Origin: Candidatus Nomurabacteria bacterium
Lineage (GTDB): Bacteria; Patescibacteriota; Minisyncoccia; Phycocordibacterales; UBA9973
DNA: 64,000 nt
NCBI GenBank assembly: GCA_026395955.1
Contig: JAPLXR010000004.1
Span: 3,883-67,882, forward strand
Reading direction: 5' to 3'
The position numbers and the translations under genes are program-made. Each line of letters opens with the position of its first letter. The stretch's first letter is position 1. This document shows, piece by piece, positions 3,424-51,510 of this stretch. Under the pieces are notes generated by a model. The model searched no databases and was not told the origin of the DNA. It saw nothing but the letters and a program-made list of their open reading frames with translations.

Positions 3424-3441
3424 CACACCTAGCTGGTGTGT
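3424..3441. terminator. intrinsic terminator hairpin ACACACC-TAGC-TGGTGTGT flanked by A-run and T-run
   Basis: Perfect inverted repeat with T6 downstream, between convergent-in-series minus-strand genes. Confidence 0.5.
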
Positions 3442-3469
3442 TTTTTAATAAGATAAAATTTATTTTAAA

Positions 3470-5947: not shown

Positions 5948-6147
5948 TTATTTTGCAAAGGCTGATTTTATAAAACTAACAGTTTCTGGTTCACCAGTAA
6001 AATACAAACTTAAAAGACCTAGAGCAATAATTACGAGAAAAATAAATAGGACTTTTATAAAATGATTACTAAACATACATGTATTATACATAAAAAATAA
6101 AATAGTTAGAACTTTACTAAAAAAGTAAACTTAAGTATAGTAATTAT

Positions 6148-7440
6148 ATGAATAGAATCTGGCTTATTTTGTTTGGGGACTTTCTATCCTTTTGGGTGTC
6201 TTTTTTTATACTTTTTAATATACGTTTAGGAAATGCGACACCTGCTAATATTTTAAACGTACATTTAACAACATTCTCTATATTATATATCTGCTGGACT
6301 ATAATATTTTTACTTTTTGGATTATACGAACTATCAAATATAAAGCCAACGATACTTCAAATACAACGTACTAGTTTAGCTCTATTTTTTTGTTTTTTTA
6401 TAGGAATAAGTTTATTTTATTTAGTTCCCTTCTTTGGTATCACACCTAAAACAAATTTATTATTACAAGTTATATTTTTTGGATTTATTTCTTTTATATT
6501 AAGAAGAATTATTTATAGTTTCTTTTCAAAACAAAATGTACGCAAAGCTATATTAATAGGAGAAACAAATTATATAAATGAGCTATACCAAATAATAAAT
6601 ACAAACCCTCAAATAGGATTAAAAATAATTTACAAAACAAAAGATTTACAAGAAGTACTAAAAAAATATTCTAATTTAGAAAATTCAGTTTTTATTTTTG
6701 AAAGTATAAACCAAGAAATTCCAGATAAAGAAATACTTAATTTATATAAAAATAAAGTTGAAATAATAGACATTGCTGAAGCTTATGAAAAATATTTATT
6801 TAAAATACCAATATATTACATAAATAAATCATGGGTAATAAAAAACATAAATACCAAAAAAGACTTTTTATATGATTCTGTTTCTAGATTTTTTAATATA
6901 ATATTTTCTATATTTATTTTAATAGTTACATTACCTTTTACAATAATAAGTTTAATTTTTATTTATCTTTATGATAATGGTCCAGTATTTTATAAACAAG
7001 AAAGAATAGGCTTAAATGGTAAAATATTTGAATTATATAAATTACGATCCATGGTTTTAGATTCAGAAAAAAATGGAGCTGTATGGTCAGAACAAAATGA
7101 TACACGCATTACACCTATAGGAAAAATAATAAGGAAAATTCACATAGATGAAATACCACAAATGATAAACATATTGAAGGGTGATATAGCGCTAGTAGGA
7201 CCCAGACCAGAAAGGCCAGAATTTGTTTCATCATTAGAGAAAACAATACCCTATTATAATTTGAGACATACCATCAGACCAGGTTTTACTGGTTGGGCAC
7301 AAATAAAATACAGATACGCTCGTACAGTCGAAGATACAAAAGAAAAATTCCAATATGATTTGTATTACATGAAAAATAAAAATATTTTTATTGATTTTGG
7401 TATCATACTTCGAACCATTCAAATAATATTCTTACACTAA
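6148..7440 (+). CDS. polyprenyl-phosphate sugar-phosphate transferase (bacterial sugar transferase, WbaP/WcaJ-like), initiating enzyme
   Basis: 430 aa, 4-5 N-terminal TM helices. C-terminal catalytic domain with KLRSM, DEIPQ, LKGDIALVGPRPE and GWAQI motifs. Confidence 0.85.
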   Translation: MNRIWLILFGDFLSFWVSFFILFNIRLGNATPANILNVHLTTFSILYICWTIIFLLFGLYELSNIKPTILQIQRTSLALFFCFFIGISLFYLVPFFGITPKTNLLLQVIFFGFISFILRRIIYSFFSKQNVRKAILIGETNYINELYQIINTNPQIGLKIIYKTKDLQEVLKKYSNLENSVFIFESINQEIPDKEILNLYKNKVEIIDIAEAYEKYLFKIPIYYINKSWVIKNINTKKDFLYDSVSRFFNIIFSIFILIVTLPFTIISLIFIYLYDNGPVFYKQERIGLNGKIFELYKLRSMVLDSEKNGAVWSEQNDTRITPIGKIIRKIHIDEIPQMINILKGDIALVGPRPERPEFVSSLEKTIPYYNLRHTIRPGFTGWAQIKYRYARTVEDTKEKFQYDLYYMKNKNIFIDFGIILRTIQIIFLH

Positions 7441-7444
7441 TTCT

Positions 7445-8251
7445 ATGGCAAAAATATCAATAATAATTCCAACATATAATAGTAGTAAATTTATAAGAAA
7501 CACAATTCAAAGTGTTTTAGAACAGACTTATACTGACTGGGAACTTCTGATTATAGATGATTGTTCCAAAGACGAAACAGAAGAAATAATAAAAGAATAT
7601 AAAAAAAAAGAACCTAAAATTAAATTCTACAAAACAGACAATAATTCTGGTGGTCCTGCCCTATCAAAAAATATAGGAATAAAAAATTCTAATGGTAGCT
7701 ATATCGCATTTTTAGACCATGACGATGAGTGGCATAAAGAAAAATTAGAAAAACAAATAAAATTATTTGAAAATTCAAAAGATAAAAATCTAGGGATAGT
7801 TTCAACTTTTTTAGATATAAAAGAAAAAGAAACTATAATAAAATATAGTAAAAATTACAGAAAAGATATTTTAAAATATCTAGCTAGTGGAAACTTTTTA
7901 ATGACTTCTAGCTGTATTATGGTAAAAAAAGACGTATTTGAAAAAATAGGTTTATTTGATAAAAGTCTTTCTGTTTCAGACGATTTAGACATGTGGATAC
8001 GTATAGCTAAAAATAATTACAACTTTGATTATGTACCAGAATACTTAACAACATACATATATCACAATAAAAATGCTTCTCTTATAAACAGAGAAAATTA
8101 CACAGAAACTAAATTACTATTCAAAAAACACAAAGAAATATATCTTAAATATAATATTAAAATAGTTATATTAAATTACATATTATATTTATTTCCTAAT
8201 TCAGAAAAGAAGATAAAGAAAATAATCTTAAAGATAAAAAAATGCATATAA
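7445..8251 (+). CDS. family 2 glycosyltransferase
   Basis: ISIIIPTYN...DWELLIIDDCSKDET...DHDDEW: canonical GT-A/GT2 N-terminus with DxD. Confidence 0.8.
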   Translation: MAKISIIIPTYNSSKFIRNTIQSVLEQTYTDWELLIIDDCSKDETEEIIKEYKKKEPKIKFYKTDNNSGGPALSKNIGIKNSNGSYIAFLDHDDEWHKEKLEKQIKLFENSKDKNLGIVSTFLDIKEKETIIKYSKNYRKDILKYLASGNFLMTSSCIMVKKDVFEKIGLFDKSLSVSDDLDMWIRIAKNNYNFDYVPEYLTTYIYHNKNASLINRENYTETKLLFKKHKEIYLKYNIKIVILNYILYLFPNSEKKIKKIILKIKKCI

Positions 8252-9066
8252 AATTATCAATAATAATAGTAAATTGGAATACTAAAGACATACTAAAACA
8301 GACAATCGAGTCTGTTAAAAAAGAAACGAGTTTGTTTGAATACGAAATAATTGTTATAGACAATAATTCTACAGATGATAGTGTAAATATGATTAAAACA
8401 CTATTCCCTTCTATAAAGATAATAGAAAACCAAGATAATTTTGGTTTTGGTTTTGCAAATAACCAAGGGTTAAAGATCGCCACAAGAGAATGTATTTTGT
8501 TTTTAAATAGTGACACTATTATTTTAGAAAACGCTATAGAAAAATTAGTAAGATTTTTAGATGAAAATAAGGACATAGCAATGGTCGGTCCTAAAATTTT
8601 AAATAAAGACAGAACTTTTCAATCTGCATCAAAAAGAAACTTACCGACAATAAAAAATTCATTTCAATATTTATTTTTAAATAAAAAAGAAAATAATTAT
8701 AAATTAGAAAATGAAGGAAATATTAGTGAAATAACTGAGGCTATTTCTGGGGCTTGTATGTTAGTTAGGCATTCTATATACAAAAAAATAGGAGGATTCG
8801 ATGAACAATTCTTTATGTATGCAGAAGATCTAGATTATTGTAAAAGAATATTAGATAACGGATTTAAAATATATTATTTAAGTACTGCTGAAATAATTCA
8901 CTTAGGAGGAGAAAGTACTAAAAAAAATACAGAATCTTTAAAATATTTTTATAAAACAATGTGGCTTTATTATAAAAAATACTTTTATAATAACAGAAAC
9001 TTATTTGTGAATTTTAGTATTTATATAGGCATAAAAATACTTTATTTTTATAAAAAATTATTTTAA
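8242..9066 (+). CDS. family 2 glycosyltransferase
   Basis: LSIIIVNWNTKD...YEIIVIDNNSTDDS...LNSDT. Overlaps the upstream GT2 by 10 nt, indicating an operon. Confidence 0.8.
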   Translation: MHIKLSIIIVNWNTKDILKQTIESVKKETSLFEYEIIVIDNNSTDDSVNMIKTLFPSIKIIENQDNFGFGFANNQGLKIATRECILFLNSDTIILENAIEKLVRFLDENKDIAMVGPKILNKDRTFQSASKRNLPTIKNSFQYLFLNKKENNYKLENEGNISEITEAISGACMLVRHSIYKKIGGFDEQFFMYAEDLDYCKRILDNGFKIYYLSTAEIIHLGGESTKKNTESLKYFYKTMWLYYKKYFYNNRNLFVNFSIYIGIKILYFYKKLF

Positions 9067-11745
9067 ATTAATACTAAAATCTTCTCTTTCTTTTGTGAGA
9101 TTTATATTATAATAAGTATCTTTTTCAATTACTTCTTTCCATTTATTTTCCATATAATTTCTTTCAAATAAAACTCTTTTATATTTTTCTGGATTTTTAA
9201 ATTTTAAATCTTCATCAAATCCACGACTCAATGATTCATAATGATATAAAATAGAATAAGGTGTATAAACTATTAAATAATTTTTCTGTCTTAATTTTAA
9301 ACAAAAATCTACATCATTATAAGCTATAGGTAAATTAACTTCATCGAAACCACCAACCTCCAAAAAAAGACTTTTTTTAGTCAACAAACAAGCACCAGTA
9401 ACAGCACTATAATTTCTAATAACATCTAAAAAACCAGCATAACCATGAGAATTTAAATTATATTTCTTGAATGGATGACTAGCTATACCTAAACCCAGGA
9501 CTACACCAGCATGCTGAATAGTATCATTAAAATACAATAATTTTGCACCCACAGCTCCAACTTCTTTTCTCTGTATATGTTCCAACATAGAACTAAGCCA
9601 TTCGCCTTCTATTACTTCTGTATCGTTATTTAGAAATAAAATATATTCACTCTTCACAAAATTAACAGCAAAATTATTTATAGCCGAAAAATTAAATTCT
9701 TTTTCATATTTTAAAATATTTATATTTTCAATTTTATTCAAACTTTCTAAATAAGAAGAAGTTTCTTTTTCTTTACTATTGTTATCAACTAAGATAACTT
9801 CATAATTTTTATACGAAGTTATTTCTAAAATACTAGAAACACAATTTTTTAAAACTTGTACTTCATCTCTAAATGGAATAATTATAGAAACTTTTGGATT
9901 ACCAAGGATTTCTCTTTTACCTCTATAACTACCTTTAAATTTACCATACGAGAAATCCCCCCTTATATTATTTCTCTCAAAATATTCATTTAATGCTTTT
10001 TTTGCAGCTTCATTTGCGTATGATTTTGCATTAATACTGCCTGCAGTAGAACCTACTACTTTTCTCCAATGATATAAGATTTTTGATATATGAAAAATCT
10101 TACTAGAATTTGTTTTTTCTATAAACCTCAATACCAAATCATAATCTTGTGAACCTTCAAAGCCTTTACGAAAGCCACCAATATTATCAATAATTGATTT
10201 TCGATATAAACTCAAATGACAGGTGTACATTTCTGAAAGTAATAAATCGATAGACCAGTCAGGTTTGAAAAATGGATCACTTCTCTTGCCATTTAATTCT
10301 AATTTATCTTCGTCACTATATATAAAATCTATATCTTTATTTATATTTAAAACTTTTATATTTTCATAAAAAGCATTCAGAGACAATTCATCATCATTGT
10401 CTAAGAGAGCAATAAATTCACCCGTTGCTATTTTTAAGGCTTCATTTGAAGCCAAAGAAATGTTTTTATTTTCTTTACCAAAAAGTATTTTAATCCTAGG
10501 GTCAAAATCTTCCCATTTTTTTAAGCATTTTAAAGTATCTTTATTTGTAGAAGCATCATCATATAAACATAATTCCCAATTTTCATAATATTGATTCAAA
10601 ACTGAATTAATACATTTATCCAACCATCTTGGTTCAACATTATAAACAGGAGTAATTATAGAAATTTTTGGTCTATAATTTAAATTATTAATTTCTTTTT
10701 TTATTTCAGAAATATTTAAATTTTCATTATTATAAATCCAGATATCATAATCTTTATTAGAAATATTTTTTTTTGAACGAAAAATACTTTTTAATTTTTC
10801 ATATATTTCTTTCATTTTCCAAAATTTGGAAGCTTTCATAAAAGCTATTTCTTGGTTTTTTGAATTAATTATTTTGTGAAGATTTTTATTTTCTTGTTCT
10901 TTTATTTTTAATAATTCATTTAACTTTAAATGATCAATATTACTATTTAAATTAGTATCAATAATCTTATCTATTACAACTTCTTGAACTAAAGAATTTA
11001 TTTTTTTATATTCATCAACAACTTCTTTAGCAACACCAATCTTCTTAATCTCACCATTTTCTAAAATCATAGCGCGATCACAATAACGTTCTATGCTTGC
11101 TATATCATGACTGACCAAAATAACTGTTTTACCACTTGCTTTATATTTCTCAAATTCATTTATACATTTTATTTGAAAATTAGCATCTCCTACTGCAAGA
11201 ACTTCATCCATTAAAAGGATTTCTCTATTTGCATGGATAGCCACAGAAAAAGCCAAACGAACCTGCATACCAGAAGAATATTTTTTTATTTTCTGATCTA
11301 TAAAACGTTCCAATTCTGAAAAAGCTACTATTGAATCGAATTTTTCATCTATTTCTTTTTTGCATAAACCAAGGACAGTAGCGTTTAAATATATATTATC
11401 TCGACCAGAAAGTTCTGGATTGAAACCTATACCAAGTTCTAAAAATGGAGACACTAAACCATTTATTTCCAAAAAACCATTATCTAAACTATAAACACCA
11501 GCCAATATTTTTAAAAGGGTTGATTTACCACTACCATTCCTACCGAGTATACCGAAGAACTCTCCTTTCTTAACCTCAAAAGAAACATCTTTTAATGCAT
11601 AAAAGGAGTCGTAAGTTTTTTTATTAAATAAATTAATAAAAGCACTCTTTAAGGTATTTACTCTCTCATGTGGAATAATAAATTCTTTTGAAATATTTTT
11701 TACACAAATTGCATTTTTATTTTTTTGTTCATTTTCTTTACTCAT
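9058..11745 (-). CDS. fusion protein: Wzt/TagH-like polysaccharide-export ABC ATPase + coiled-coil linker + two GT2 glycosyltransferase domains
   Basis: 895 aa. N-terminus has GRNGSGKSTLLKILAG, YSSGMQVRLAFS and LLMDEVLAVGD (ABC ATPase). Residues ~350-600 show ISIITPVYNVEPRWL...LCLYDDAST...LDNDDEL (GT2). Residues ~640-880 show VSIIIPFRDE...EVILVDNNS...LNNDTEV (second GT2). Confidence 0.8.
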   Translation of the reverse strand: MSKENEQKNKNAICVKNISKEFIIPHERVNTLKSAFINLFNKKTYDSFYALKDVSFEVKKGEFFGILGRNGSGKSTLLKILAGVYSLDNGFLEINGLVSPFLELGIGFNPELSGRDNIYLNATVLGLCKKEIDEKFDSIVAFSELERFIDQKIKKYSSGMQVRLAFSVAIHANREILLMDEVLAVGDANFQIKCINEFEKYKASGKTVILVSHDIASIERYCDRAMILENGEIKKIGVAKEVVDEYKKINSLVQEVVIDKIIDTNLNSNIDHLKLNELLKIKEQENKNLHKIINSKNQEIAFMKASKFWKMKEIYEKLKSIFRSKKNISNKDYDIWIYNNENLNISEIKKEINNLNYRPKISIITPVYNVEPRWLDKCINSVLNQYYENWELCLYDDASTNKDTLKCLKKWEDFDPRIKILFGKENKNISLASNEALKIATGEFIALLDNDDELSLNAFYENIKVLNINKDIDFIYSDEDKLELNGKRSDPFFKPDWSIDLLLSEMYTCHLSLYRKSIIDNIGGFRKGFEGSQDYDLVLRFIEKTNSSKIFHISKILYHWRKVVGSTAGSINAKSYANEAAKKALNEYFERNNIRGDFSYGKFKGSYRGKREILGNPKVSIIIPFRDEVQVLKNCVSSILEITSYKNYEVILVDNNSKEKETSSYLESLNKIENINILKYEKEFNFSAINNFAVNFVKSEYILFLNNDTEVIEGEWLSSMLEHIQRKEVGAVGAKLLYFNDTIQHAGVVLGLGIASHPFKKYNLNSHGYAGFLDVIRNYSAVTGACLLTKKSLFLEVGGFDEVNLPIAYNDVDFCLKLRQKNYLIVYTPYSILYHYESLSRGFDEDLKFKNPEKYKRVLFERNYMENKWKEVIEKDTYYNINLTKEREDFSINLK

Positions 11746-12521
11746 ATAATTTCAGCTACTTTTTTCTCATATTTTTTAAATATAAAAAATGACAAGATAA
11801 ATACAAACACAATACTAAAAAATAAAATACTAAAATTATAAAATCCAGTAAAATTATTTGATATCAAACCTTGCTTTGAAAAATGAATTATAAAAGCCAA
11901 AGGATTTAATAATAAAATTTTCTGAGCATATATTGGCATTATTGATAGTGGATATACTATTGGTGAAGCATACATCAAAATAGAAAGTAGTACTTCCCAA
12001 ATATTAGACAAGTCACGAAAGCGAACAAAGAGTGGAGCTGTAACAAAAGAAAAGGCTACGATTAAAAGGTACAAAAGTATTGAATAAATTAAAAACATTA
12101 TAATACCTAAAAAGCTAGGCATTTTATCATAAATAAAAAAGAAAAAAGTTAGAACAATTAGATTCATTCCAAAAACAAAAAGAGAGTTAATAGTAGACCC
12201 TAAAACTATCGTCCACCTAGGAACGTAAGTTTTTGTAACAAGTTGAGCTTTTAAAACCAATGACATCATGCCGGCCATAGTACCTTCGGCAAAAAACTGA
12301 AACATTAACAATGCTGTCATTAACTCTAGAGGATAGTATGGATTAGTTGAATTCCTCATTCCGAAAATATTTGAAAAAACAAAATTCAAAACTGAAAACA
12401 TTAAAAGTGGTTTGAGTATAACCCAAACGTATCCCAAAGTACTACCATGATAACGTAATTTGAAATCCGTCTTAGCTAAACGTAAAACTAATTCTCTGTA
12501 ATTTTCATGTTTTTTTATCAT
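11742..12521 (-). CDS. ABC-2 type polysaccharide export permease (Wzm/TagG-like)
   Basis: 259 aa, 6 TM helices. Directly upstream of, and overlapping, the Wzt-like ATPase gene. Confidence 0.8.
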   Translation of the reverse strand: MIKKHENYRELVLRLAKTDFKLRYHGSTLGYVWVILKPLLMFSVLNFVFSNIFGMRNSTNPYYPLELMTALLMFQFFAEGTMAGMMSLVLKAQLVTKTYVPRWTIVLGSTINSLFVFGMNLIVLTFFFFIYDKMPSFLGIIMFLIYSILLYLLIVAFSFVTAPLFVRFRDLSNIWEVLLSILMYASPIVYPLSIMPIYAQKILLLNPLAFIIHFSKQGLISNNFTGFYNFSILFFSIVFVFILSFFIFKKYEKKVAEII

Positions 12522-12535
12522 AAATAATCCTTTAA

Positions 12536-14521
12536 TTATAACATAATACCATTATTTTTCAGTCTTAAAATAACTTTATTATAATTTGCAACGTCTTTAT
12601 TTTGATTAAAATATTTTATAAAACTTTTATAAATATCTACGTTAATTGTTTCTTGGTTTTTAAAATAAGAAACACTTAAATCAAAACTTTTTTCAAAGTA
12701 ACTAAAAGACTCATCATATTTTTGTTGATACATCAAATTAAAAGCTAAACCATAATTCACGTCTGGTCTATTTGGAGAAATATTTATAATCTTTAAAAAA
12801 GAATCTTCTCCTTTTTGTAAAAATAAAGTATCTTTCAATAAATTACCTTTGATAGTATAAGCATTAGCTAAATACATTAAAGATTTTAAATTTAATTGAT
12901 CTTTTAGTGAATATTCTTCAGATGCTTTGATGGCTAAATCAAATAATTTTTTAGTTTTTTCATTTTGTATATTTCTATTATCTCCTGTAAATAAAACAAA
13001 ATCGTTTCTGATATCCATCTGTGCAACAGTAAAAGGATATAAAACAGAATTAATATTCTGCAACATTAGATTTTGACTACCATCAACACGTAAAGAATGA
13101 TATTTATGCATTTGTGCATAAGCAATCAAATCATTACTAAAATATATAAAAACTATAAACACAGTTATTATTGGTAAAAATAAAGTGGTAGCTTTTAAAT
13201 ATTTTTTATTGTCTTCAACTTTATTTTCTTTTTTATTTAAATCTACAGAAACAATAAAAGCTAGAATAATGAAAAATGATATATATGTATTGATTTGATC
13301 AAAGATAAATAAAAGATGTACAAAAAGTGCAATACCATAGAACAACAAAGCTATATTTATTAGAGAAAAATCTTTCCTTTTAAAAATATTTCTAAAACAT
13401 AAGAAATATATAGCTAAATAAGCTATTAGACCTAAAAAGCCATTCATCACTAAAACATCAAATAATTTATCATGTGCTCTATCAAATGAAACAACTTCAT
13501 AATCAAACTGTTTTATATTGAAATATCTAGCATAAGCTTGAGCAAAATTCTCTGGACCCCAACCAACTAAAAACTTTTTTAGACCATTATGTGCAGGATT
13601 TACAGCGTCTAAACTCACACCTACGTTCAATATCCTCGTTTGTAGAGTCGTATCATTCGAAGTCATAACCGCTACCCTAGAAAAACCAGGAACCTTTTGC
13701 CAGAAAACATTTGAACGAGTAACAATGAAAATAAGAGAAAAAGAGAAAATAATACCTAACAATATCAGAGAGATTCTACTTAAATTGTACTTTTTATAAG
13801 AAATACCCTTCCCTTTCAAACTACAGTAAATAAGTATCAGAATAATACCAATAGCGAGACCCAGTATTGAGCCTCTAGTGCCAGTAACAAATATACCCAA
13901 GATTGATAATAAAAATACTTTTACAGAAAAGTATTTCCATAATCTATTTTTTTCTTCACTAAACACAACCAATGAACAAAAAATAGCAAAGAGTAAATAT
14001 CCAGCTAGAAATGTCGGGTTACTAAAAAAAGACCCAGGTCTAGCTACACCATTAAAATATTGGAAAAATTCCCTTATTAACAAAAAGAAGGAAGTAAAAA
14101 GACTTATTTTGAAAAACCATAAATAATCTTCTTTTTCAAAAATTAAAACAGAAAATACGAAGAAAAAAAAGATATAAGCTAGTCCCACGAAGCCTTCTGC
14201 ACGCTCTATATTGCCCCAGAAAGCTGTGTATTTATCTACAGCAAGAAAAGTACTAATAGTATATATGAAGAAGAATACCAATACAGATACAATCAAAGGC
14301 TTCTTTGTGAGTCTTTTTATTTTTTCGACAATTTCTGTTTTAAAGATCTTATCAGTAAAAAAATTAGTTAAAAATAATATACTAATCAAAAAAATCAAAC
14401 TTCTAAAGAAAAAACTTTCCCCTGTTATGTAAGGGTAAAAAACATTATTATCTACTATAAGTGGAGTAAGTGCAGTTAAACAGAGTAAAATCTTTATTAT
14501 CTTCTTCATATTATTTATCAA
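12536..14521 (-). CDS. O-antigen ligase/polymerase-family (Wzy_C-like) polytopic membrane protein with C-terminal TPR-like domain
   Basis: 661 aa, more than 10 TM helices. Contains GTRGSILGLAIGIILILIY typical of the Wzy_C/O-antigen ligase core. The soluble C-terminal ~190 aa are helical-repeat rich. Confidence 0.55.
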   Translation of the reverse strand: MINNMKKIIKILLCLTALTPLIVDNNVFYPYITGESFFFRSLIFLISILFLTNFFTDKIFKTEIVEKIKRLTKKPLIVSVLVFFFIYTISTFLAVDKYTAFWGNIERAEGFVGLAYIFFFFVFSVLIFEKEDYLWFFKISLFTSFFLLIREFFQYFNGVARPGSFFSNPTFLAGYLLFAIFCSLVVFSEEKNRLWKYFSVKVFLLSILGIFVTGTRGSILGLAIGIILILIYCSLKGKGISYKKYNLSRISLILLGIIFSFSLIFIVTRSNVFWQKVPGFSRVAVMTSNDTTLQTRILNVGVSLDAVNPAHNGLKKFLVGWGPENFAQAYARYFNIKQFDYEVVSFDRAHDKLFDVLVMNGFLGLIAYLAIYFLCFRNIFKRKDFSLINIALLFYGIALFVHLLFIFDQINTYISFFIILAFIVSVDLNKKENKVEDNKKYLKATTLFLPIITVFIVFIYFSNDLIAYAQMHKYHSLRVDGSQNLMLQNINSVLYPFTVAQMDIRNDFVLFTGDNRNIQNEKTKKLFDLAIKASEEYSLKDQLNLKSLMYLANAYTIKGNLLKDTLFLQKGEDSFLKIINISPNRPDVNYGLAFNLMYQQKYDESFSYFEKSFDLSVSYFKNQETINVDIYKSFIKYFNQNKDVANYNKVILRLKNNGIML

Positions 14522-43699: not shown

Positions 43700-43700
43700 G

Positions 43701-43774
43701 TCCACCCTCATGGATTCGAACCATGGACCCCAGAGGTATAAGCTCTGTGCTCTAACCAACTGAGCTAAGGGTGG
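43701..43774 (-). tRNA. tRNA, anticodon UAU (tRNA-Ile reading AUA), 74 nt, no encoded CCA
   Basis: Minus strand reads CCACCCT-TA-GCTC-AGTTGGTTA-GAGC-A-CAGAG-CTTATAC-CTCTG-GGGTC-CATGG-TTCGAAT-CCATG-AGGGTGG-A. Full cloverleaf with 7/4/5/5-bp stems, T-loop TTCGAAT, D-loop AGTTGGTTA, anticodon loop CU-UAU-AC. Unusual C1:G72. Confidence 0.75.
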
Positions 43775-43848: not shown

Positions 43849-45777
43849 CTAACTAATTTTATTTTCAATATCTTTCTTCTTTGGTAAAATTCCATTCGCT
43901 ATTATTATCTTTTCGTAATCAGCTTGTTCAAGTGTTTCTACATCTATCAAAGCATTCGCAATAGCATCGAGGGCTTTTCTGTGATCAGTGAGAACTTTTT
44001 CTGCAGACTTTATTCCGTCTGTGACTATTCTTTTTACTTCACTATCTATCTTACCAGCAACTTCTTCTGAATAATCTTTTTCACTTCCACCTCCCCATTT
44101 TTGATTTCCACTATCTTCTGCAAAAACTACAGGGCCAACGAGGTCACTCATTCCCCATCTTGTAACCATAGCGCGAGCAAGGCGTGTCGCGACTTGTAAA
44201 TCAGATGATGGTCCTGTAGTAATATCTCCAAAAATCATTTTCTCTGCGACATAGCCACCCATAGACATAGCAATATCATCTATAAATTCTTTTCGACTTT
44301 GTAGTTTTCTATCTTCTAGTGGAAGCTTGAGCGTGTATCCTCCAGCACTACCACGAGCAACAATAGAAACTTTGTGAACTGGATCAGCATAAGGCAGGAC
44401 TGATGCCACAAGTGCATGGCCTGCTTCATGATATGCAGTAATTTCTTTTTCTTTTTTAGAAAGCAAATGACTCTTTCTCTCAGGACCGAGCATTACTTTT
44501 TCTATCGCACGAATCAAATCAAATTGAAAAACTTTTTTACGAGCTTCACGAGCAGCGAGAATCGCACCTTCGTTCATAAGTGAATATAGGTCTGCTCCAG
44601 AAAATCCTGGTGTTCTTTCTGCTATTACAGTAAAGTTTACATCTTCGGCAAGAGGCTTTTTAATTGCATGAATTCTCAAAATTTCTTCACGGTCTGCACG
44701 GTCAGGAAGATCGAGCATAACACGACGATCAAAACGTCCCGGGCGAAGAAGTGCAGGATCGAGAACATCTGGGCGATTTGTCGCAGCCATTACGATAACT
44801 TTTTCATTTGGTTCAAAGCCATCCATTTCTACGAGAATTTGGTTTAGTGTTTGCTCACGTTCATCATTACCTCCACCATAACCACCACCACGTACGCGTC
44901 CGACTGCATCTATCTCATCTACGAAAATAATTGCAGGAGCTGCTTTCTTTGCCATTTTGAAAAGATCACGCACACGAGACGCTCCCACACCGACAAACAT
45001 TTCTACGAATTCAGAACCAGACAAATGAAAAAATGGAACACCTGCTTCCCCTGCTACTGCACGAGCGAGCAATGTCTTTCCTGTTCCAGGTGCACCGTTA
45101 AGCATTACACCTTTTGGAATTCGTGCACCAATGTCTAGAAACTTTTTTGGTTCTTTTAAGAAATCTACAATTTCAGAAAGTTCTTGTTTAGCTTCTTTGT
45201 TTCCTGCCACATCTTTGAAAGTAACTTTATTATTTTTATCATTCGGATCTGTGATACGAGCCTTTGATTGTCCAAATGTAAATGCCTGCATTCCAGCACC
45301 CTTTACACTACGAGATAAATACCAAAAGAAAAATACTATTAGAAGAATAGGCAAAGCAAAAGGTAAAATATTCATGAGCCAATATCCGAAACCACTTTCG
45401 TCTTTAACTTGGATATTTGTTTTTGCTAATGCATCAGCTTTTACACCGTAATTAAATAATGTTTGAGATAGTGAAGCTTCAACTTCTTTCTTGGCTTCTT
45501 TCACATCTCCATTTACATATGAAATAGTTAAAGTTTCTCCTGCTACATCGATACTTTTAACTTCTCCGTTTTGCACACTTTTCGCTAAGTCAGATATAGA
45601 AACTTGAGGTGTCTCTTTGATGCTTCCAGAAATGGCCAAATACAGAGCGGTAATAATCATAAAAACCAATACCATTCCTGCTATATTCTTTGAAAAACTA
45701 CTACCCTCTTTTCCTTCCTTGCCCTTCTTTGGGTCTTTATTTTCTTTATTATTTTGATTTAAAAAATTGAAATTCAT
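43849..45777 (-). CDS. ftsH: ATP-dependent zinc metalloprotease FtsH
   Basis: Two TM helices, AAA+ module [23 protein letters not shown], Walker [13 protein letters not shown], and protease HEAGHAL. The true start is MNFNFLNQ at 45777, because the longer ORF to 45990 overlaps divergent smpB. Confidence 0.93.
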
Positions 45778-45830
45778 AAGCAAAGAATAGCATGAAAAAC
45801 GGAAAAATAAAAATGTGCTAATATTAAAAC

Positions 45831-46274
45831 ATGGCGAATTATGCGGAAAATAGAAAGGCGCGTTTTGATTATGAAATCCTCGAGAAATACGAGGCTGGTA
45901 TTGAGCTTCTAGGAACAGAAGTAAAATCAGTCCGTGGTGGACGAATGTCACTGGAAGGGGCTTTTGTGATCGTGCGTGGATCTGAAGCATTTATTATCAA
46001 TGCGAATATTCCACCATATCAAGTTAAAAATACTCCGTCTTCTTATGACCCGCTTCGCAATAGAAAACTTCTTTTGACTCAAAAAGAAATTGCCGAGCTC
46101 GGTGGAAGTGAGAAAAATAAAAGTTTGACTATAGTACCACTTTCAGTGTATAATAAAGGTTCCAAAATTAAAGTAAATATTGCTTTGGTTAAAGGAAAAA
46201 AACAATTTGATAAACGCGAAACAACAAAAAAGCGTGAAACAGATCGTGAAGTTCGCAGAACTTTAAAAAATTAA
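45831..46274 (+). CDS. smpB: SsrA-binding protein SmpB
   Basis: 147 aa. NRKARFDYEILEKYEAGIELLGTEVKS...LLLTQKEIAEL is the canonical SmpB sequence. Confidence 0.95.
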   Translation: MANYAENRKARFDYEILEKYEAGIELLGTEVKSVRGGRMSLEGAFVIVRGSEAFIINANIPPYQVKNTPSSYDPLRNRKLLLTQKEIAELGGSEKNKSLTIVPLSVYNKGSKIKVNIALVKGKKQFDKRETTKKRETDREVRRTLKN

Positions 46275-46779: not shown

Positions 46780-46783
46780 TTTA

Positions 46784-46809
46784 AAAAATCCCCGAAAGGG
46801 GATTTTTTA
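46784..46809. terminator. bidirectional intrinsic terminator AAAAAATCCCC-GAAA-GGGGATTTTTT (copy 1 of 5)
   Basis: Shared by the tmRNA (+) and the 1244-aa gene (-). A-run and T-run on either side. Confidence 0.7.
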
Positions 46810-46816: not shown

Positions 46817-49800
46817 TTACTTATATCTAGTGGCAAAATTCATTACATCGTCTTCGTTGAGTCCAACTTTAGACATTTTTTCTTTTACCACCTTTTTCAT
46901 ATATTCTTCGGCTGTATCATTATCCTTTATAGTTTCCTTGTCTTTTTTACTTGGAGTAATAAATTCAAAATGAGCTGTTGGATACTTTAATTTCAATTCT
47001 TCTATCTTCTTTTTCAAACCAGCTACTTTTGCAGGGTCTGATTCAAAAATCATAAAAGCTTGTTTATTACGTCTAGGTAAGTCTTTTGCTTGTTCTATTT
47101 TACTGTCTATTTCCCTCTCCAATGTCTTTGGAGTATCTGTCATAATAGAGAAAATATTATTGATATTTTTATCAAAAGGAACTTCTTTTATTTCTTCTTG
47201 TTTTTGATTTTTCTTTTTATTCTTTTTCTCGAAAACACTATTTATACTGTCTAGACCATTATCTAATGCATCTAATCCTTTACCCATAGTATTCTCAACT
47301 TTATCTAATGCTTCATTAATTTTTTTCTTTATAGATTTCTTTTCTTTTTCTTCTTTAGCTTTCTTTTCAGCCTTTTTATCTTCTTTCTTTATTTCTTGTT
47401 TTTTAACTTCTTTTTGAACTACCACTTTTTTAATTTCTTGTTTTGGATTTTCTATTTTTTCTTCATCTTCAATTTCTTTTTTTAACTCAAATATCTTTGA
47501 ATTAATAGCTGCTTGAACTTTAGTATTTGTTGCGTTAGGAAGATAATCTTCTAATGTTTTCAAAAATTGAGCCCTTTCTTCTTGCTTAGATAATTTTTTA
47601 TCTTCTTTTGTTTCCACTTTTTCACCTGAAGATATTTTTACACCACTCAAATATGTCTCCATTTCATTACCGATAATTTGTAGTTCTTCTTTGTTGAACC
47701 TTGTAGGTTTTTCATCTTTTATGAAAGCCAATTCATTATATCTTTTCTTTCCATATTCAGACTTGAAACTTGATTCTTCAAGCATGATAATACCATGATG
47801 TGATTGAATTTCTTTGTTCAACATTTTTAAATCATCTTTCAATCCTCCGTATTCAGCTTCGGTAACTTCTTTTGAAAATTCTTTATTTTCTTTTAATGTA
47901 TTCTTATCTTCTTCTCCATAAAAACCGTCTGTCAAAATAACCTGTCCATCTGGAGATTTTTTATCTTTAATTTGTTCTTTTTTATTTTTATCTTCTTTTG
48001 CTTTTTTCCTAGCTGGTTCTAACGGATCACCAGGAACTACTGGAATAAATGGAGGAACTCTATAATCATATTTACCAGGAATAATGAAATTAGTTTTATG
48101 AATTTCATCAACAGCTCCAGTATAAGTACTAATATCTGAAAGTCCCTTTCCTTCCATTGTTCCTAAAATTTTAAATTTACCATCACCCAAGTCTTCGGCA
48201 ACTTCACCAAATCTTCCGTTGAATTGAGCATGACCATTTACTTTTGAGAAGAATAATTTTCCAAGTTCACTATTATGTTCAACATTTATTTTTCCATTTG
48301 CATCAACATCAACCCACATAGCATGGTTCTGAGTTCCTTCAGACATAGTAAAAAGCATTTTCAATTTTCCAGCTGCTAATAATTCTCTTGCATTCGCAGA
48401 GAGGTCTCCATGAAAAGATCCATCTGGTGTCATATGACCAACGTCTAAAACATAATCTCCATTTCCGTTTATACCTGTACCATTTTCTCCACTCCAATAT
48501 GTACGCAACTCATTTTGATCAAATTCTTTTGTATCATTGTCATACCACATTTTTCTTTCAATATTATGAAAGCCCTTTGGATGATCTTTTATATAATCAG
48601 CCGGATCACTATAGGTATGTTTTTCTAAATGACTAGCATAGTTAGTATCTACTTTTATATCTATTCCGTTTTTATGCAAAACATCAATTGCTTCTTTACT
48701 AAATGTTCCATCTCCATTCATTGTTAAATGATTTCCTATGACGTCTTTTCCATTCAATAAATTAAATGAGCCATCAGGATTATGAACTAAATTCATACCT
48801 TCTGGTAATTTCATAGTATTTGAACCCATTACAAATTCATGAACATTATTGCCAGAAAAATGTGAAGACATATCACTAGAAACATAATGCTTCAAATATG
48901 CGAGTCCTGTCATTTTTTCTACTCCACCCAAAGCTCCAGTAACATGGTCACCTTTTATATCATGGTAAACATCTTCTATAATTCCTGTTCTGTGAGTGAA
49001 ATGCACTGCAGCTTCTTGGGCTAATGTGCCAATAGTAAGACCAGTTATAAATCCTGTTAATGCGGCTTTATTACCCTTACTTCTTTTCATTTTATTGAAA
49101 GCACGATCTTTGACATCTATACCATGTTCTTTATCAGTAACTAAAGCATTTACTTGTGTATCTGTCATAGCAGAAATATAAGTATCAAAATTATATCCTT
49201 CTGGAATTTCCAATTTACCAGACTTACTCATCTTAATAAGTTCTGCTTTTAATTTAGATCTTTCTATATCTACTTTCCATCTCTCTTCGACAACTTTTGA
49301 AGGGTCGGAATAATGAATCATATCTATATGTTCTTTATCAGACAAACGAACACGTGCTTCTATTTGTGAAAAGTTAACCAGAATACTTTGTAATATTTCT
49401 GGAGTTATAGATTTGTCACCACTAGCAATCATTTCTTGAACTCTTTGGAATTCTTCTATAACAGCTGTAGCACCGATAGTATCTACACGGAAATTTTCCA
49501 TTTCTTTTCTATTTAAATCTTTTTCACCATAATCTAAACCTTTTGCCATATCACGATTATGATGAGTACGATTTTGAATCATTTCTCTTTGCTTGCGACT
49601 TTTTGCAATTATCCCAGAAATCAAAGCACTACCACCGAAAGTCATAAATTGAGCAGCTTTATTACTAGCGAGTTTAGATGAAAGACTTCTAGACAAACTT
49701 GTAGCCAAAGCTATCGCAGTCGCCACTGTTGTTTCATTTACAAATTGACCGATTTTTGTCTCAGAGATCTTTTCTGCCCATTTTTCTGAATGAGTAAATT

Positions 49801-50551
49801 TTGATTCTGTACGAACATCACCTTTTGATTTTCCATATATCAAATCAATTTCAAAGTCTTCATCAGCTAAGATTTGACCATTTTCCATTGCTTTTTTAAC
49901 TTGTTTTGCAATTTCGAGCATATTAGAAGCATGCATAACATCGGTACGAACTTGTTTTCCTTCTATATCCCCTTTCAATTCACCAAATAAATGTTTTTCA
50001 AATTCTAAAAAACCCGCTTCAGAAATTTTTCCTGTAGCATATTCTTTTATTTTTTCTTTTACAAAATTTTTAACTGATTCTTCTTTTCTATTTACCTCTG
50101 AATCTTCTTTTTTACCATCATAAACTTTTTTCATTTCTCCCGCATCAGTGTGTATTGCTGTTTCGTATTCAGAAGAAAATTGATTTACGAGGTCATTAAC
50201 GAATTTATCATGATATGCTTGATCTTTATCTTCTCCTGCACCAATATTTCCACTATTTAAAATCTTTTCACGAGCCTTGTATATCTCTTTGTTACGAGTA
50301 TATTCACGTAAAATACCGTGTTTCCATATTCTAGTACCAGTACGTTTCCAAAATTCACTTTTAAAGAATTTTTTCATTCCTTTTAAATCTTCTGGGTTTT
50401 CTGGTGGTTCGAGTGTCATCTTTTCATCAGCAGCATCACGTGCAGCTGATTTCATAACGTCAGTAGTATCAACGAGAACAGCCTTAAAAACTTTTTTCTC
50501 AATATTTTGTTTTACTTCTTCATTAATGTTGTTAGGGTTAAAATTTTCCAT
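46817..50551 (-). CDS. giant hypothetical protein (1244 aa), two internal hydrophobic segments, Gly/His/Asp-rich central region, Lys/Glu-rich low-complexity C-terminal third
   Basis: Uninterrupted ORF with no motif I can assign. Hydrophobic stretches at ~aa 265-315 (TTVATAIALATSLS...FGGSALISGIIAKS) and ~aa 515-535 (ALTGFITGLTIGTLAQEAAV). Central region rich in NG/DG/HG dipeptides. C-terminus has KKVVVQKEVKKQEIKKEDKKAEKKAKEEKEKK. Confidence 0.5.
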   Translation of the reverse strand: MENFNPNNINEEVKQNIEKKVFKAVLVDTTDVMKSAARDAADEKMTLEPPENPEDLKGMKKFFKSEFWKRTGTRIWKHGILREYTRNKEIYKAREKILNSGNIGAGEDKDQAYHDKFVNDLVNQFSSEYETAIHTDAGEMKKVYDGKKEDSEVNRKEESVKNFVKEKIKEYATGKISEAGFLEFEKHLFGELKGDIEGKQVRTDVMHASNMLEIAKQVKKAMENGQILADEDFEIDLIYGKSKGDVRTESKFTHSEKWAEKISETKIGQFVNETTVATAIALATSLSRSLSSKLASNKAAQFMTFGGSALISGIIAKSRKQREMIQNRTHHNRDMAKGLDYGEKDLNRKEMENFRVDTIGATAVIEEFQRVQEMIASGDKSITPEILQSILVNFSQIEARVRLSDKEHIDMIHYSDPSKVVEERWKVDIERSKLKAELIKMSKSGKLEIPEGYNFDTYISAMTDTQVNALVTDKEHGIDVKDRAFNKMKRSKGNKAALTGFITGLTIGTLAQEAAVHFTHRTGIIEDVYHDIKGDHVTGALGGVEKMTGLAYLKHYVSSDMSSHFSGNNVHEFVMGSNTMKLPEGMNLVHNPDGSFNLLNGKDVIGNHLTMNGDGTFSKEAIDVLHKNGIDIKVDTNYASHLEKHTYSDPADYIKDHPKGFHNIERKMWYDNDTKEFDQNELRTYWSGENGTGINGNGDYVLDVGHMTPDGSFHGDLSANARELLAAGKLKMLFTMSEGTQNHAMWVDVDANGKINVEHNSELGKLFFSKVNGHAQFNGRFGEVAEDLGDGKFKILGTMEGKGLSDISTYTGAVDEIHKTNFIIPGKYDYRVPPFIPVVPGDPLEPARKKAKEDKNKKEQIKDKKSPDGQVILTDGFYGEEDKNTLKENKEFSKEVTEAEYGGLKDDLKMLNKEIQSHHGIIMLEESSFKSEYGKKRYNELAFIKDEKPTRFNKEELQIIGNEMETYLSGVKISSGEKVETKEDKKLSKQEERAQFLKTLEDYLPNATNTKVQAAINSKIFELKKEIEDEEKIENPKQEIKKVVVQKEVKKQEIKKEDKKAEKKAKEEKEKKSIKKKINEALDKVENTMGKGLDALDNGLDSINSVFEKKNKKKNQKQEEIKEVPFDKNINNIFSIMTDTPKTLEREIDSKIEQAKDLPRRNKQAFMIFESDPAKVAGLKKKIEELKLKYPTAHFEFITPSKKDKETIKDNDTAEEYMKKVVKEKMSKVGLNEDDVMNFATRYK

Positions 50552-50571
50552 TGTATTAATTAATTAAAATA

Positions 50572-50895
50572 TTAAGCAATATATCTAGTTCTAAAGTCTA
50601 AATATTCTCCAGCTAAAACTTCTGCCATATTTGGAATAGTTGCAGTGTAAAAATCACTGATAGCTTTTTCATCATCACTATCTAATACTTTTTCAAATTC
50701 ACCAAGTTTATATTCAGGAATATTTGATAAAATTACAGCATTTATTCTATCTTCTAAACGATCTAGCATGTCTTTTTTTAATTGAGTTAAAACTTCAGCG
50801 TCTAAGTCGATAGCCATACCAGCTTCGACAATAAGCTTTTCAATAAACTCTTCATTCATATTTTTAACACTTGCGACGTTTGTATTTTGTGACAT
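50572..50895 (-). CDS. small acidic helical hypothetical protein, co-oriented 20 nt upstream of the giant ORF
   Basis: 107 aa, net acidic (many D/E), no TM. Probably co-transcribed with 46817-50551. Confidence 0.4.
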   Translation of the reverse strand: MSQNTNVASVKNMNEEFIEKLIVEAGMAIDLDAEVLTQLKKDMLDRLEDRINAVILSNIPEYKLGEFEKVLDSDDEKAISDFYTATIPNMAEVLAGEYLDFRTRYIA

Positions 50896-51003
50896 AATTT
50901 TTAAAAATTAAGATTAGTAAATATAAAACTCTTTAATTATACACCCATTTGCAAAAAATCAATACTTCTGCTAGAATACTAAGAGTTTTTTAAATATATA
51001 AAA

Positions 51004-51510
51004 TTGCGAGAAAGAATAAACAATCAAATAAGAGCAAAGGAATTACGTGTTTTAGACAGTGAAAACAAGAACCTCGGCCTTTTAAGCTTCAAAGAAGCCT
51101 TAGAGTTGGCAACAAAACAAGGCCTTGATCTCATTGAAATATCACCAAATGGTAATCCCCCAATTGCAAAGATAGCTGATTTTGGTAAATACCAATACGA
51201 ACAAAGTAAAAAACAAAAGAAAGCTAAAGCTAATGCAAAACCGACTGAAACTAAATCAATTCAAGTTAAAATCGGTACTGGAGATCACGATTTGGAGTTA
51301 AAAGCTAAAACAGCTTCCAAATGGCTCAAAGAAGGACATCGTATAAAAGTAGAGCTTTTCCTCGCTGGTAGAGCTAAATATATGGATGAGAAATTCTTGA
51401 AAGAACGTTTAGATCGAGTTTTACATTTTATAACAGAAAACTATAAAATCTCAGATCCTTATAAAAAAGGACCAAAAGGTATAATAATTACAATAGAGAA
51501 AGACAAATAA
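51004..51510 (+). CDS. infC: translation initiation factor IF-3 with non-AUG start codon
   Basis: 168 aa matches the IF-3 N- and C-domains (IRAKELRVLDSENKNLGLLSFKEALELA...DLIEISPNGNPPIAKIADFGKYQYE...). The reading frame begins at TTG 51004 (an in-frame ATA at 50998 is also possible) and has no in-frame ATG before residue ~125. Confidence 0.88.
   Translation: MRERINNQIRAKELRVLDSENKNLGLLSFKEALELATKQGLDLIEISPNGNPPIAKIADFGKYQYEQSKKQKKAKANAKPTETKSIQVKIGTGDHDLELKAKTASKWLKEGHRIKVELFLAGRAKYMDEKFLKERLDRVLHFITENYKISDPYKKGPKGIIITIEKDK

Follow-up and report, generated by a model that had tools for sequence, protein, structure and literature searches.

Organization of the locus

What does the largest open reading frame (ORF) of this stretch of DNA encode, and how is it related to the small gene that precedes it? 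The window, by which the whole 64-kb stretch analyzed is meant, has as its largest ORF a minus-strand gene at 46817..50551. Its product of 1244 aa (the second largest ORF has 915 aa), called the giant here, consists of a conserved core and a short-tail C-terminal region. The first gene of the pair, at 50572..50895 on the same strand, encodes a 107-aa acidic protein with 22 Asp and Glu residues versus 11 Lys and Arg. Between the two lies an A/T-rich gap of 20 nt (50552..50571, minus strand), in which inspection of the sequence revealed neither a terminator nor a clear Shine-Dalgarno sequence. A single copy of the pair is present in the window, as in each locus fetched.

The small gene and infC (51004-51510) diverge from a common intergenic region of 108 nt. 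A possible −10 hexamer, TATAAT (50936..50941, minus strand), can be read about 40 nt 5′ of the small gene's ATG; since a two-hexamer consensus scan gave no report of it, it remains an unvalidated candidate. At the other end, the giant converges with the tmRNA gene ssrA (46370-46777/46779), and the perfect palindrome AAAAAATCCCC-GAAA-GGGGATTTTTT (46783..46808, no strand assigned) lies between the end of ssrA and the giant's stop codon. Read from the sequence, it forms the hairpin A6-T-CCCC-GAAA-GGGG-A-T6, a candidate bidirectional intrinsic terminator common to both genes that is absent from the output of a consensus terminator scan. An earlier sequence-only reading had described this layout exactly (coordinates, spacing, protein sizes and acidity, flanking genes and the terminator shared with ssrA), as judged from the ORF list, sequence and composition.

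Conservation of the gene pair

The same reading had called the pair an orphan, which is wrong, and had found no assignable motif in the giant, which is right for the giant but would not hold for the small protein. The small protein matches the Pfam family DUF5663 (PF18908) with 37.8 bits versus a cutoff of 23.7 (E 2.9e-9), over profile positions 2-80 of 84 (79 positions). This profile is also matched by 83 of 87 aligned homologues, and a protein identical to the 107-aa product carries the NCBI name 'DUF5663 domain-containing protein'. A search with the DUF5663 profile gave 248 matches, and the family also contains paralogues of ~140 aa and stand-alone copies. As for the giant, an exhaustive search of public data yielded 806 representatives of its core at 50% clustering, 502 of them with E <= 1e-30, and all named representatives belong to the CPR/Patescibacteria. 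Both ORFs are real genes and not chance products, for each has conserved homologues in the hundreds.

The two genes also travel together. In each of the 28 informative loci reached through the giant, the gene directly upstream of it is a DUF5663 gene in the same orientation, typically with a gap of −8 to +40 nt. Conversely, downstream of each of four independently picked DUF5663 genes lies a homologue of the giant (E 1e-40 to 1e-90). Pairwise identities of the two proteins co-vary (Pearson r = 0.82, 210 locus pairs), and in none of 172 proteins is DUF5663 fused to the giant, which suggests that it needs to act as a free polypeptide.

By contrast, the flanks change, with no single flanking gene and no nearby secretion-system genes conserved across loci. 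The neighbours are infC-rpmI-rplT and ssrA/smpB in the window and in loci L001 and L029, infB in L006 and L033-L035 (the module follows infB in several Saccharibacteria), secY-map in L004, and tRNA ligases in L004 and L038, while in L032 the module sits inside the S10 operon, between rpsJ and rplC. Unrelated genes, such as Zip, LysM-M23, UvrD and RecG, are found at other loci. As adjacency and co-orientation are kept despite these changes and the identities co-vary, the earlier proposal of co-transcription and a partner relationship is well founded. The two ORFs represent one copy of a two-gene operon that is ancient and has been inherited vertically in the CPR/Patescibacteria. Pfam had already catalogued the DUF5663 family; the near-obligate pairing with a downstream giant is shown here and is not described in the literature searched.

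Domain organization of the giant

The conserved core spans aa ~18-850 (48002..50500, minus strand, as are all segments below), according to BLAST extents and an alignment with 30 homologues from a word-index search, which are 25-64% identical to the window protein taken as reference. Its invariant residues are E139, N210, T248, R328, D410, R424, K435, D482, G508, E513 and W669. The core begins with an alpha/beta domain at aa 20-265 (49757..50494), identified from the secondary structure of the model (pLDDT ~80-89), in which the motifs VDTTD, AGE, MHASN and GKSKxGVRTE are kept. After a first hydrophobic region comes a helical-bundle domain at aa 319-496 (49064..49597), which has basic flanks, contains the motifs RRQHxREMAKG, EARIRLSD, IDLIxYSD and KDRIFNKM, and is both the best-conserved and the best-predicted part of the giant (pLDDT 82-93). 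A second hydrophobic region separates it from a G/N/H-rich domain at aa 545-832 (48056..48919), predicted by the model to be beta-rich, with the motifs WYDNDT and HMTPDGSFH; the homologue at L031 lacks this domain. The composition noticed by the sequence-only reading was confirmed: each 100 aa between 501 and 800 contain 11-13 G, 7-10 N and 5-8 H, and aa 801-1244 are K/E-rich.

The AlphaFold2 model of the core has a pLDDT of 74.8. Neither the core sequence, compared with Pfam, NCBIfam, PHROG, PADLOC and PDB sequences, nor the model, compared with the folds of PDB and BFVD, gave a match. Among PDB sequences, the family profile reached only those of a GT2 mannosyltransferase (6yv7; E 0.26, not significant). 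Remote homology has thus assigned no mundane function to the giant. No relatives were found in IMG/VR, and PADLOC gave no defence-system match for the module.

In the alignment, the two internal hydrophobic stretches reported earlier (aa ~273-318 and ~497-520) keep their position in 30 of 30 homologues; their hydrophobicity in the window giant is weak. Region 1, at aa 273-318 (49598..49735), comprises two Gly/Ala/Ser/Thr-rich helices (about 50-58% G/A/S/T) followed by a basic flank, and is a candidate membrane hairpin; the pLDDT is low at aa 268-306. Region 2, at aa 497-520 (48992..49063), includes the invariant G508 and E513 and the near-invariant Q512. The Kyte-Doolittle (KD) maximum over 19 residues is ~1.1 in the window giant and 1.5-1.84 at the same aligned positions in some homologues, against a canonical transmembrane criterion of ~19 or more residues with KD >= ~1.6; in most members, hydrophobicity is marginal. 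No N-terminal hydrophobic segment occurs in any sampled member: within the initial 70 aa, hydrophobicity over 12 residues peaks at <= 1.2. As far as can be judged from this, signal peptides are absent from the family. The flanks of the helical bundle carry mean net charges of +2.4 and +3.9 and are positive in 30 of 30 sequences, which would favour a hairpin or monotopic anchor.

Enzymatic tails and the short-tail subclass

Most family members carry a divergent glycosyltransferase (GT)-like domain of ~420 aa, with recurrent matches to GT2 Pfam families (best 1.5e-5), an invariant SNDAD motif of the DXD type and a GED motif; one such protein (P0021) has the NCBI name 'glycosyltransferase'. The domain is fused or adjacent to the core in 24 of 32 loci. 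Among 172 proteins, 91 consist of core and GT, nine of core, GT and kinase, and 67 of the core only. Core, GT-like domain and kinase are thus modular, with gene fission and fusion. In a minority (nine representative proteins, five loci), a Hanks Ser/Thr kinase forms part of the protein with core and GT or comes immediately after it, and PP2C phosphatase genes adjoin the module upstream in two loci of Saccharibacteria genomes. Some relatives contain GT9 or a YkuD L,D-transpeptidase, the latter preceded by an extra hydrophobic segment; YkuD, GT9 and kinase all exceed the Pfam cutoffs. The GT2, kinase, GT9 and YkuD tails are orthologous across lineages (33-53% identity), and other tails are conserved unknown modules.

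The window giant belongs to a minority, GT-less 'short-tail' subclass, in which a helical module, a K/E-rich stretch and a small terminal domain replace the enzymatic tail. It has no GT2 match in Pfam, a tblastn search of the 64-kb window with the family's GT-like domains gave no match, and Pkinase (PF00069) is absent from both the giant and the whole window. The ~75-aa helical module 'FKSEYGKKRY...RFNKEEL', at aa 896-975 (47627..47866), is typical of the subclass and is present in one or two copies in 24 other family members, and P0291 has two at the N-terminus. The Lys/Glu-rich low-complexity stretch at aa 986-1115 (47207..47596), defined by composition, has almost no homologues. Only the nearest relatives share the terminal ~125-aa domain at aa 1121-1244 (46820..47191), which is 70% identical to the C-terminus of P0002/L001; at L009, it is encoded as a separate ORF of 135 aa.

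Proposed function and alternatives

These findings point to a CPR-wide, uncharacterised cell-envelope machine. Tentatively, the module may be a membrane-associated platform for envelope biogenesis or signalling, located on the cytoplasmic face and equipped with an obligate small partner; this is the explanation preferred here, and it is a possible rather than a probable one. Basic flanks, the lack of a signal peptide and the use of nucleotide sugars or ATP by the fused domains would place the giant's large domains in the cytoplasm. Its hydrophobic helices, as a hairpin or a monotopic anchor, would hold the protein to the membrane from the cytoplasmic side, and the core would position enzymes that build or regulate the envelope (related to glycoconjugates or peptidoglycan), perhaps under Ser/Thr phospho-control. 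DUF5663 would then be an obligate soluble partner, either an assembly or holding factor or a regulatory subunit bound to a basic surface of the giant.

Such a platform resembles known systems only in part. Like membrane-associated GT2 (GT-A) enzymes, for instance, the polyprenyl-phosphate glycosyltransferases of the DPMS/GtrB type (PDB 6yv7), most family members would have a GT-A domain in the cytoplasm together with hydrophobic helices. Nevertheless, ~400 residues separate these helices from the GT domain that follows them, they are part of an 850-aa core that known GT2 enzymes lack, and the window giant is entirely without a GT domain. The Hanks kinase and PP2C genes of some relatives are shared with envelope-signalling modules of the PknB/PASTA-kinase type; in those the kinase is N-terminal to a transmembrane helix, whereas in the family it is at the extreme C-terminus, without PASTA or other known sensor domains, and is missing from the window copy.

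Other explanations are weighed against this platform. The two hydrophobic regions might each span the membrane and flank an extracytoplasmic helical sensor domain (aa 319-496), which would pass a signal from outside the cell, perhaps contact with a host, to GT or kinase outputs in the cytoplasm. In effect, the order of hydrophobic segment, ~175-aa helical bundle, hydrophobic segment and output domains is like that of two-TM sensors such as chemoreceptors and sensor kinases, the bundle is the best conserved and predicted part, kinases are fused or adjacent, PP2C genes are adjacent, and segments of some homologues reach KD 1.7-1.8. This arrangement is unlikely, however, because the strongly basic bundle ends place the bundle in the cytoplasm by the positive-inside rule, and because hydrophobicity is marginal in most members, the window copy included. 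It also needs a 270-aa N-terminal domain kept inside without a signal peptide, with only one region-1 helix spanning, and no known sensor domain matches the fold. CPR bacteria are episymbionts, and their large unknown proteins are suspected interaction factors. The sequence-only reading had accordingly suggested host attachment or an immunity/effector pair, and the giant could be secreted or displayed on the surface to interact with the host, or could act as a polymorphic effector, the small protein serving as secretion chaperone or immunity partner. Effectors are paired with small chaperones and carry hydrophobic helices in T6SS (Eag chaperones and prePAAR effectors) and T7SS (LXG toxins and Lap partners). 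The module shares with them a small helical partner upstream of a large protein that has hydrophobic helices, reminiscent of translocation domains, and a C-terminal region differing between lineages; the partner is acidic, as are many secretion chaperones. Even so, such a role is improbable, and neither suggestion is supported by the data. There is no signal peptide, known trafficking domain or secretion-system context; no LXG, PAAR, RHS-type, repeat or adhesin domain was found by Pfam in the window giant or its 30 relatives. The tails are orthologous enzymes of housekeeping type and not toxin cassettes. An immunity gene would be variable and lie downstream, but the small gene precedes the giant, is conserved and co-varies with the core, and the window giant is followed by the terminator and ssrA. 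Moreover, the pair is single and sits in housekeeping neighbourhoods, including the S10 operon, its inheritance is vertical across the whole superphylum, and PADLOC, PHROG (for the giant) and viral searches gave no matches.

The remaining alternatives concern the small protein and the gene neighbourhood. DUF5663 might be a dedicated chaperone, a stand-alone relative of the peptide-binding helical domain of trigger factor (TF; its C-terminal part) or SurA, holding the giant (its hydrophobic helices, for instance) while it is synthesized or inserted into the membrane and not remaining as a permanent subunit. This role, which is compatible with the platform explanation for the giant, is weakly supported and rather unlikely. 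Like those ATP-independent chaperones, DUF5663 is small and all-helical, and it is acidic and always separate from and upstream of the giant. Its profile lists TF from three organisms among PDB sequences, each time around TF ~251-321, where the C-terminal chaperone domain begins (E 0.4-1.4); hhalign aligns the same segment with the N-terminal half of DUF5663 (P = 0.03), and P0131 is labelled 'trigger factor' by JGI. Nevertheless, no sequence, profile or fold match is significant, the hhalign probability is 1.6%, and small all-helical proteins yield many spurious likenesses. Pfam Trigger_C is absent from the top 25 families of all 87 members, even at E <= 1, and a Foldseek search of PDB with the confident model of the small protein gave a best E of 1.6, with no TF, SurA or Spy in 50 matches. 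The weak TF resemblance, together with the recurrent translation-gene neighbours, might also suggest that ribosomes or nascent chains are what the module acts on, for instance by tethering translation to the membrane. This is very improbable: no single neighbour is conserved, translation genes are expected nearby by chance because CPR genomes are small and dense in them, and the enzymes fused to the core serve the envelope or signalling rather than binding RNA or ribosomes.

The small partner

The AlphaFold2 model of the 107-aa protein (pLDDT 83.7, pTM 0.70) predicts a five-helix bundle, with helices at residues 5-25, 33-57, 61-72, 76-86 and 90-106. The model matched no fold in PDB and no viral-protein fold, and PHROGs gave only E ~1e-3, to a phrog of unknown function. 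In the literature searched, DUF5663 has neither an assigned function nor publications on the family. D42, F101 and Y105 are invariant among the 24 partners compared. In a Tn-seq study of Southlakia epibionticum, the DUF5663 gene SEML1_0162 was classed as essential (GD/ES/ES), and its family was flagged as core and Patescibacteria-enriched (PMC10633639 Table S1).

The two-gene locus in the window

On the reverse strand of the window, an ORF of 107 aa (50572-50895) is followed, 20 nt downstream, by one of 1244 aa (46817-50551), and no ORF in the window is larger than the latter. On either side of the pair lie a divergent infC (51004-51510) and a convergent tmRNA gene (46370-46777/46779). Acidic residues (22 D+E) outnumber basic ones (11 K+R) in the small, acidic protein, and the 1244-aa protein, referred to here as the giant, is rich in G, N, and H at its centre and in K and E over its last third. 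The giant also has two hydrophobic stretches, at aa ~273-318 and ~497-520. Their positions are conserved among homologues, and in the window protein they are weak, with a Kyte-Doolittle maximum of ~1.1. Re-reading of the sequence bears out the sequence-only reading in its description of the ORFs, their composition, the hydrophobic stretches, and the flanking genes.

That reading had also proposed a terminator common to the pair and ssrA. In effect, a perfect palindrome, AAAAAATCCCC-GAAA-GGGGATTTTTT (46783-46808), is in the right place, between the end of the tmRNA and the giant's stop codon, and is compatible with a bidirectional intrinsic terminator; nevertheless, it is not among the terminators listed by a consensus scan. 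Upstream of the operon, a search against Rfam (E <= 0.1) found no regulatory RNA. Proteins identical to both products have been deposited from a Candidatus Nomurabacteria MAG, the giant as a hypothetical protein and the small one as a "DUF5663 domain-containing protein".

Family size and taxonomic distribution

The pair had been taken for an orphan module, a view that does not survive database searches. The small protein matches Pfam DUF5663 (PF18908) with a score above the threshold, and the conserved core of the giant (residues ~18-850) has 806 representatives at E <= 1e-3, and 502 at E <= 1e-30, in an exhaustive phmmer search over 1.84 billion cluster representatives. Nearly all of these matches are 1000-2000 aa long and contain the full-length core. 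A word-index search returned 30 homologues of the giant, which have residues ~18-850 in common at 25-64% identity and are divergent beyond this region, and the DUF5663 profile retrieves 248 stand-alone proteins of ~100-125 aa. It is true, as first noted, that no motif can be assigned to the giant: its core has no match in Pfam, NCBIfam, PHROGs, PADLOC, or PDB sequences, either as a single sequence or as a 30-sequence profile. A literature search found no mention of DUF5663 or PF18908 in the text of papers.

From the named sources of the sequences and from scanning species-representative genomes, giants occur in Nomurabacteria, Saccharibacteria, Moraniibacteria, Uhrbacteria, Doudnabacteria, Paceibacterota, Minisyncoccia, and Parcubacteria. 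The module is also present in four MAGs labelled "uncultured Gammaproteobacteria" (loci L018, L020, L027, and L029). As L029 has the neighbours infC-rplT-smpB in common with the window, these labels are probably wrong, and the four MAGs are probably mislabelled CPR (Patescibacteria) bins. A phage or mobile origin of the module was also considered and rejected, with no relatives found on viral contigs.

Pairing of the two genes

The two genes form a co-inherited operon. In all 28 loci that were reached through the giant and that have upstream DNA present, the giant is immediately preceded, on the same strand, by a DUF5663 homologue, typically with a gap of -8 to +40 nt (225 nt in one locus). 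L027 alone seems to break this rule; it borders a scaffold gap (Ns) and was therefore discounted. The pair is thus kept among CPR relatives, while the genes around it vary between loci and show no conserved surroundings. The reverse test gives the same picture: four DUF5663 proteins were chosen solely for their position on long contigs, and after each comes an unannotated gene of 1132-1398 aa that is homologous to the window giant. In addition, pairwise identities of the small and giant proteins co-vary (Pearson r = 0.82, 210 locus pairs). No DUF5663-giant fusion is present among 172 collected giants. One BLAST link hinted at an internal DUF5663-like segment in the giants, and this was rejected after an HMM search of the same 172 proteins gave nothing below E 0.04.

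In Saccharibacteria, the module is expanded to DUF5663a, the giant, a ~100-aa acidic protein, and DUF5663b (~140 aa). The two additional conserved small genes lie downstream of the giant (L006, 10055-10915; L033, 12627-13422; L034, 12556-13371; L035, 9980-10766), and the ~100-aa acidic helical protein has no Pfam match.

Modular tails in relatives

Most members of the family carry a domain of ~420 aa beyond the core. Judging from its motifs and profile matches, this is a divergent GT2 (GT-A) glycosyltransferase domain: it shows recurrent matches to GT2 Pfam families (best 1.5e-5) and contains a GED motif as well as an invariant SNDAD; among PDB sequences, the family profile touches only a GT2 mannosyltransferase. 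A Hanks Ser/Thr kinase is added in some members. These parts are found both fused and split: L004, L014, and L015 have a single core+GT+kinase ORF, in L002 and L010 the kinase gene is separate and comes after core+GT, and in L012 it is the GT-like gene that is separate, coming after the core alone. The 172 collected proteins include 91 with core+GT, 9 with core+GT+kinase, and 67 with the core only; in 24 of 32 loci, a GT-like domain is either fused to the core or encoded next to it. Further tails include GT9 and a YkuD L,D-transpeptidase.

Six proteins have instead a tail domain of ~400 aa with invariant D..D, DTS, and DHH motifs (P0025, from L038, aa 809-1250; P0162; P0229; P0266; P0292; and the L031 giant, aa 554-980). 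These motifs are reminiscent of DHH phosphoesterases, an identity that was set aside, as neither Pfam nor a PDB profile search recognises the domain. In the L031 giant, this tail is joined to the N-terminal half of the core only, and the beta-rich domain is missing.

The window copy falls in the short-tail class, in which a ~75-aa helical module, present once or twice (aa 896-975 in the window protein, and also in 24 other members), is followed by K/E-rich sequence. The ~125-aa terminal domain of the window protein is restricted to its nearest relatives. Within the 64-kb window, there is no homologue of the GT-like domain or of the kinase. The window copy is devoid of enzymatic tails, and this shows the core to have an independent function. 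In Saccharibacteria, a PP2C Ser/Thr phosphatase gene can be found directly upstream of the module (L033, 6834-7865; L034, 6956-7906), complementing the Hanks kinases that are fused or adjacent in other lineages.

Anatomy and topology of the giant

An AlphaFold2 model of aa 1-860, with a 30-sequence alignment as input, reached a mean pLDDT of 74.8 and a pTM of 0.56. It predicts an N-terminal alpha/beta domain (aa 20-265), a low-confidence helix pair with 50-58% Gly/Ala/Ser/Thr (aa 273-318), and a confident helical bundle (aa 319-496, pLDDT 82-93), which holds the most conserved motifs of the giant (RRQHxREMAKG, EARIRLSD, IDLIxYSD, and KDRIFNKM). Next come a second hydrophobic helix with invariant G508 and E513 (aa 497-520) and a beta-rich domain with the motifs WYDNDT and HMTPDGSFH (aa 545-832). 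Foldseek provided no credible relatives of the core model (best E 0.22 in PDB and 0.011 in BFVD, with TM-scores near 0.1); its matches to transporters, neurotoxins, and tape-measure proteins were dismissed as long-helix noise. Neither these comparisons nor the profile searches assigned a mundane function to the giant, and the 850-aa core appears to have an unrecognised fold, as far as the PDB and BFVD libraries reach.

An N-terminal hydrophobic segment is missing from every family member. The helical bundle has basic flanks throughout the 30 aligned proteins, with a mean charge of +2.4 just after the first hydrophobic region and +3.9 just before the second, which argues that the bundle is cytoplasmic. 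GT2, GT9, and kinase domains depend on cytoplasmic nucleotide substrates, and YkuD, normally extracytoplasmic, sits behind a weakly hydrophobic segment of its own. In the most coherent model, all of the large domains would face the cytoplasm, and the helices rich in small residues may anchor the protein in the membrane, as a hairpin or monotopically, although these candidate anchors are only marginally hydrophobic.

Genomic context and published essentiality data

The module adjoins infC/ssrA in the window, L001, and L029, and follows infB in several Saccharibacteria. In the saccharibacterial locus L032, it interrupts the S10 ribosomal-protein operon, which is otherwise highly conserved, with rpsJ on one side and rplC on the other; it comprises there a 110-aa membrane protein, DUF5663, a 1349-aa giant, and a 97-aa acidic protein (7611-12709). 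The DUF5663 protein of this locus is recorded in 378 collection blocks, its lineage being widely sampled.

To our knowledge, a single Tn-seq screen of this kind has been published for Patescibacteria. In it, the DUF5663 genes of Southlakia epibionticum are flagged as "core" and as a "Patescibacteria-enriched" family (Wang et al. 2023, PMC10633639, Table S1). The screen calls SEML1_0162 essential (GD/ES/ES) and SEML1_0221 dispensable, and it records a growth defect for SEML1_0163 (PMC10633639). According to the same tables, SEML1_0221 has no adjacent giant, and pairing is therefore obligate for the giant and not for DUF5663. SEML1_0161, an unannotated and essential gene of 767 aa (Tables S1/S2), occupies the giant's slot after infB and is by this synteny a candidate giant. 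SEML1_0222 was rejected as a giant, since the published table gives a gene of 110 aa. The main text of PMC10633639 does not discuss SEML1_0161-0163 or SEML1_0221.

Proposed role and alternatives

The conserved core repeatedly fuses with, and splits from, GT2, kinase, GT9, and YkuD modules. Perhaps the core is a membrane-associated platform on the cytoplasmic face, serving envelope glycoconjugate or peptidoglycan synthesis or its Ser/Thr phospho-regulation, with DUF5663 as the obligate free partner of the giant. This role, suggested by the fusions, is put forward tentatively, at somewhat less than even odds. A broader proposal is that the pair is an ancient, near-universal, Patescibacteria-specific machine, membrane-associated and made of folds absent from solved structures, that, under Ser/Thr phospho-control, organises envelope glycosylation or the remodelling of peptidoglycan and is needed for episymbiont growth; this is rather unlikely to hold as a whole.

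Among the alternatives, taken here in order of plausibility, DUF5663 could be a dedicated chaperone similar to the trigger factor C-terminal domain or SurA. The case is weak: several signals converge on trigger factor, but they are sub-significant in Foldseek, in the PDB profile search, in hhalign against E. coli trigger factor, and in a Pfam scan of 87 members. The giant might otherwise be a sensor with two transmembrane helices and an external helical bundle, and here the basic flanks of the bundle argue against such an orientation. The sequence-only reading raised the possibility of an effector with an immunity partner, or of an adhesin for host attachment. This is now disfavoured, as an export signal is missing, the tails are conserved enzyme domains, the partner gene is upstream and co-varies with the giant, and the gene neighbourhood is of a housekeeping type. 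Finally, a link to translation would be drawn only from the neighbouring genes, and such neighbours are expected in small genomes.

The CPR comprise a large share of bacterial diversity, and we know of no function for most of the proteins that distinguish them. What seemed to be an orphan pair is a defined, widespread module, with 806 representative clusters, strict pairing, and links to glycosyltransferase, kinase, and peptidoglycan-crosslinking domains. It has no detectable relative among characterised families or solved structures, a statement of non-detection in limited fold libraries and not proof of absence. If the envelope-machine proposal is true, the module would rank among the "dark-matter" cell-biology systems that define the CPR. 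The core would also be well worth solving structurally should it prove to be a new membrane-platform fold. Saccharibacteria are genetically tractable and have the module, so a role in the envelope or in host-dependent growth is now testable.

Other features of the window and a syntenic locus

In the syntenic Nomurabacteria locus L001, a DGR-like block of bAvd and reverse-transcriptase genes (2111-3534) is inserted between an LDcluster4 gene and rplT, an insertion that the window lacks. The window encodes a tRNA-Ile with anticodon TAT (UAU) (43700-43774, -), an uncommon bacterial means of reading AUA. Its FtsH ORF (43849-45990, -), listed as 713 aa, overlaps the opposite-strand smpB by ~160 nt. 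As its syntenic homologue in L001 has 640 aa, the true start is probably an internal Met at ~45774. Lastly, the stretch at ~6000-14000 has a markedly low GC content (0.23-0.27 vs 0.31-0.39 elsewhere) and holds ORFs of 895 aa (9058-11745, -) and 661 aa (12536-14521, -); it is possibly a foreign or fast-evolving island.
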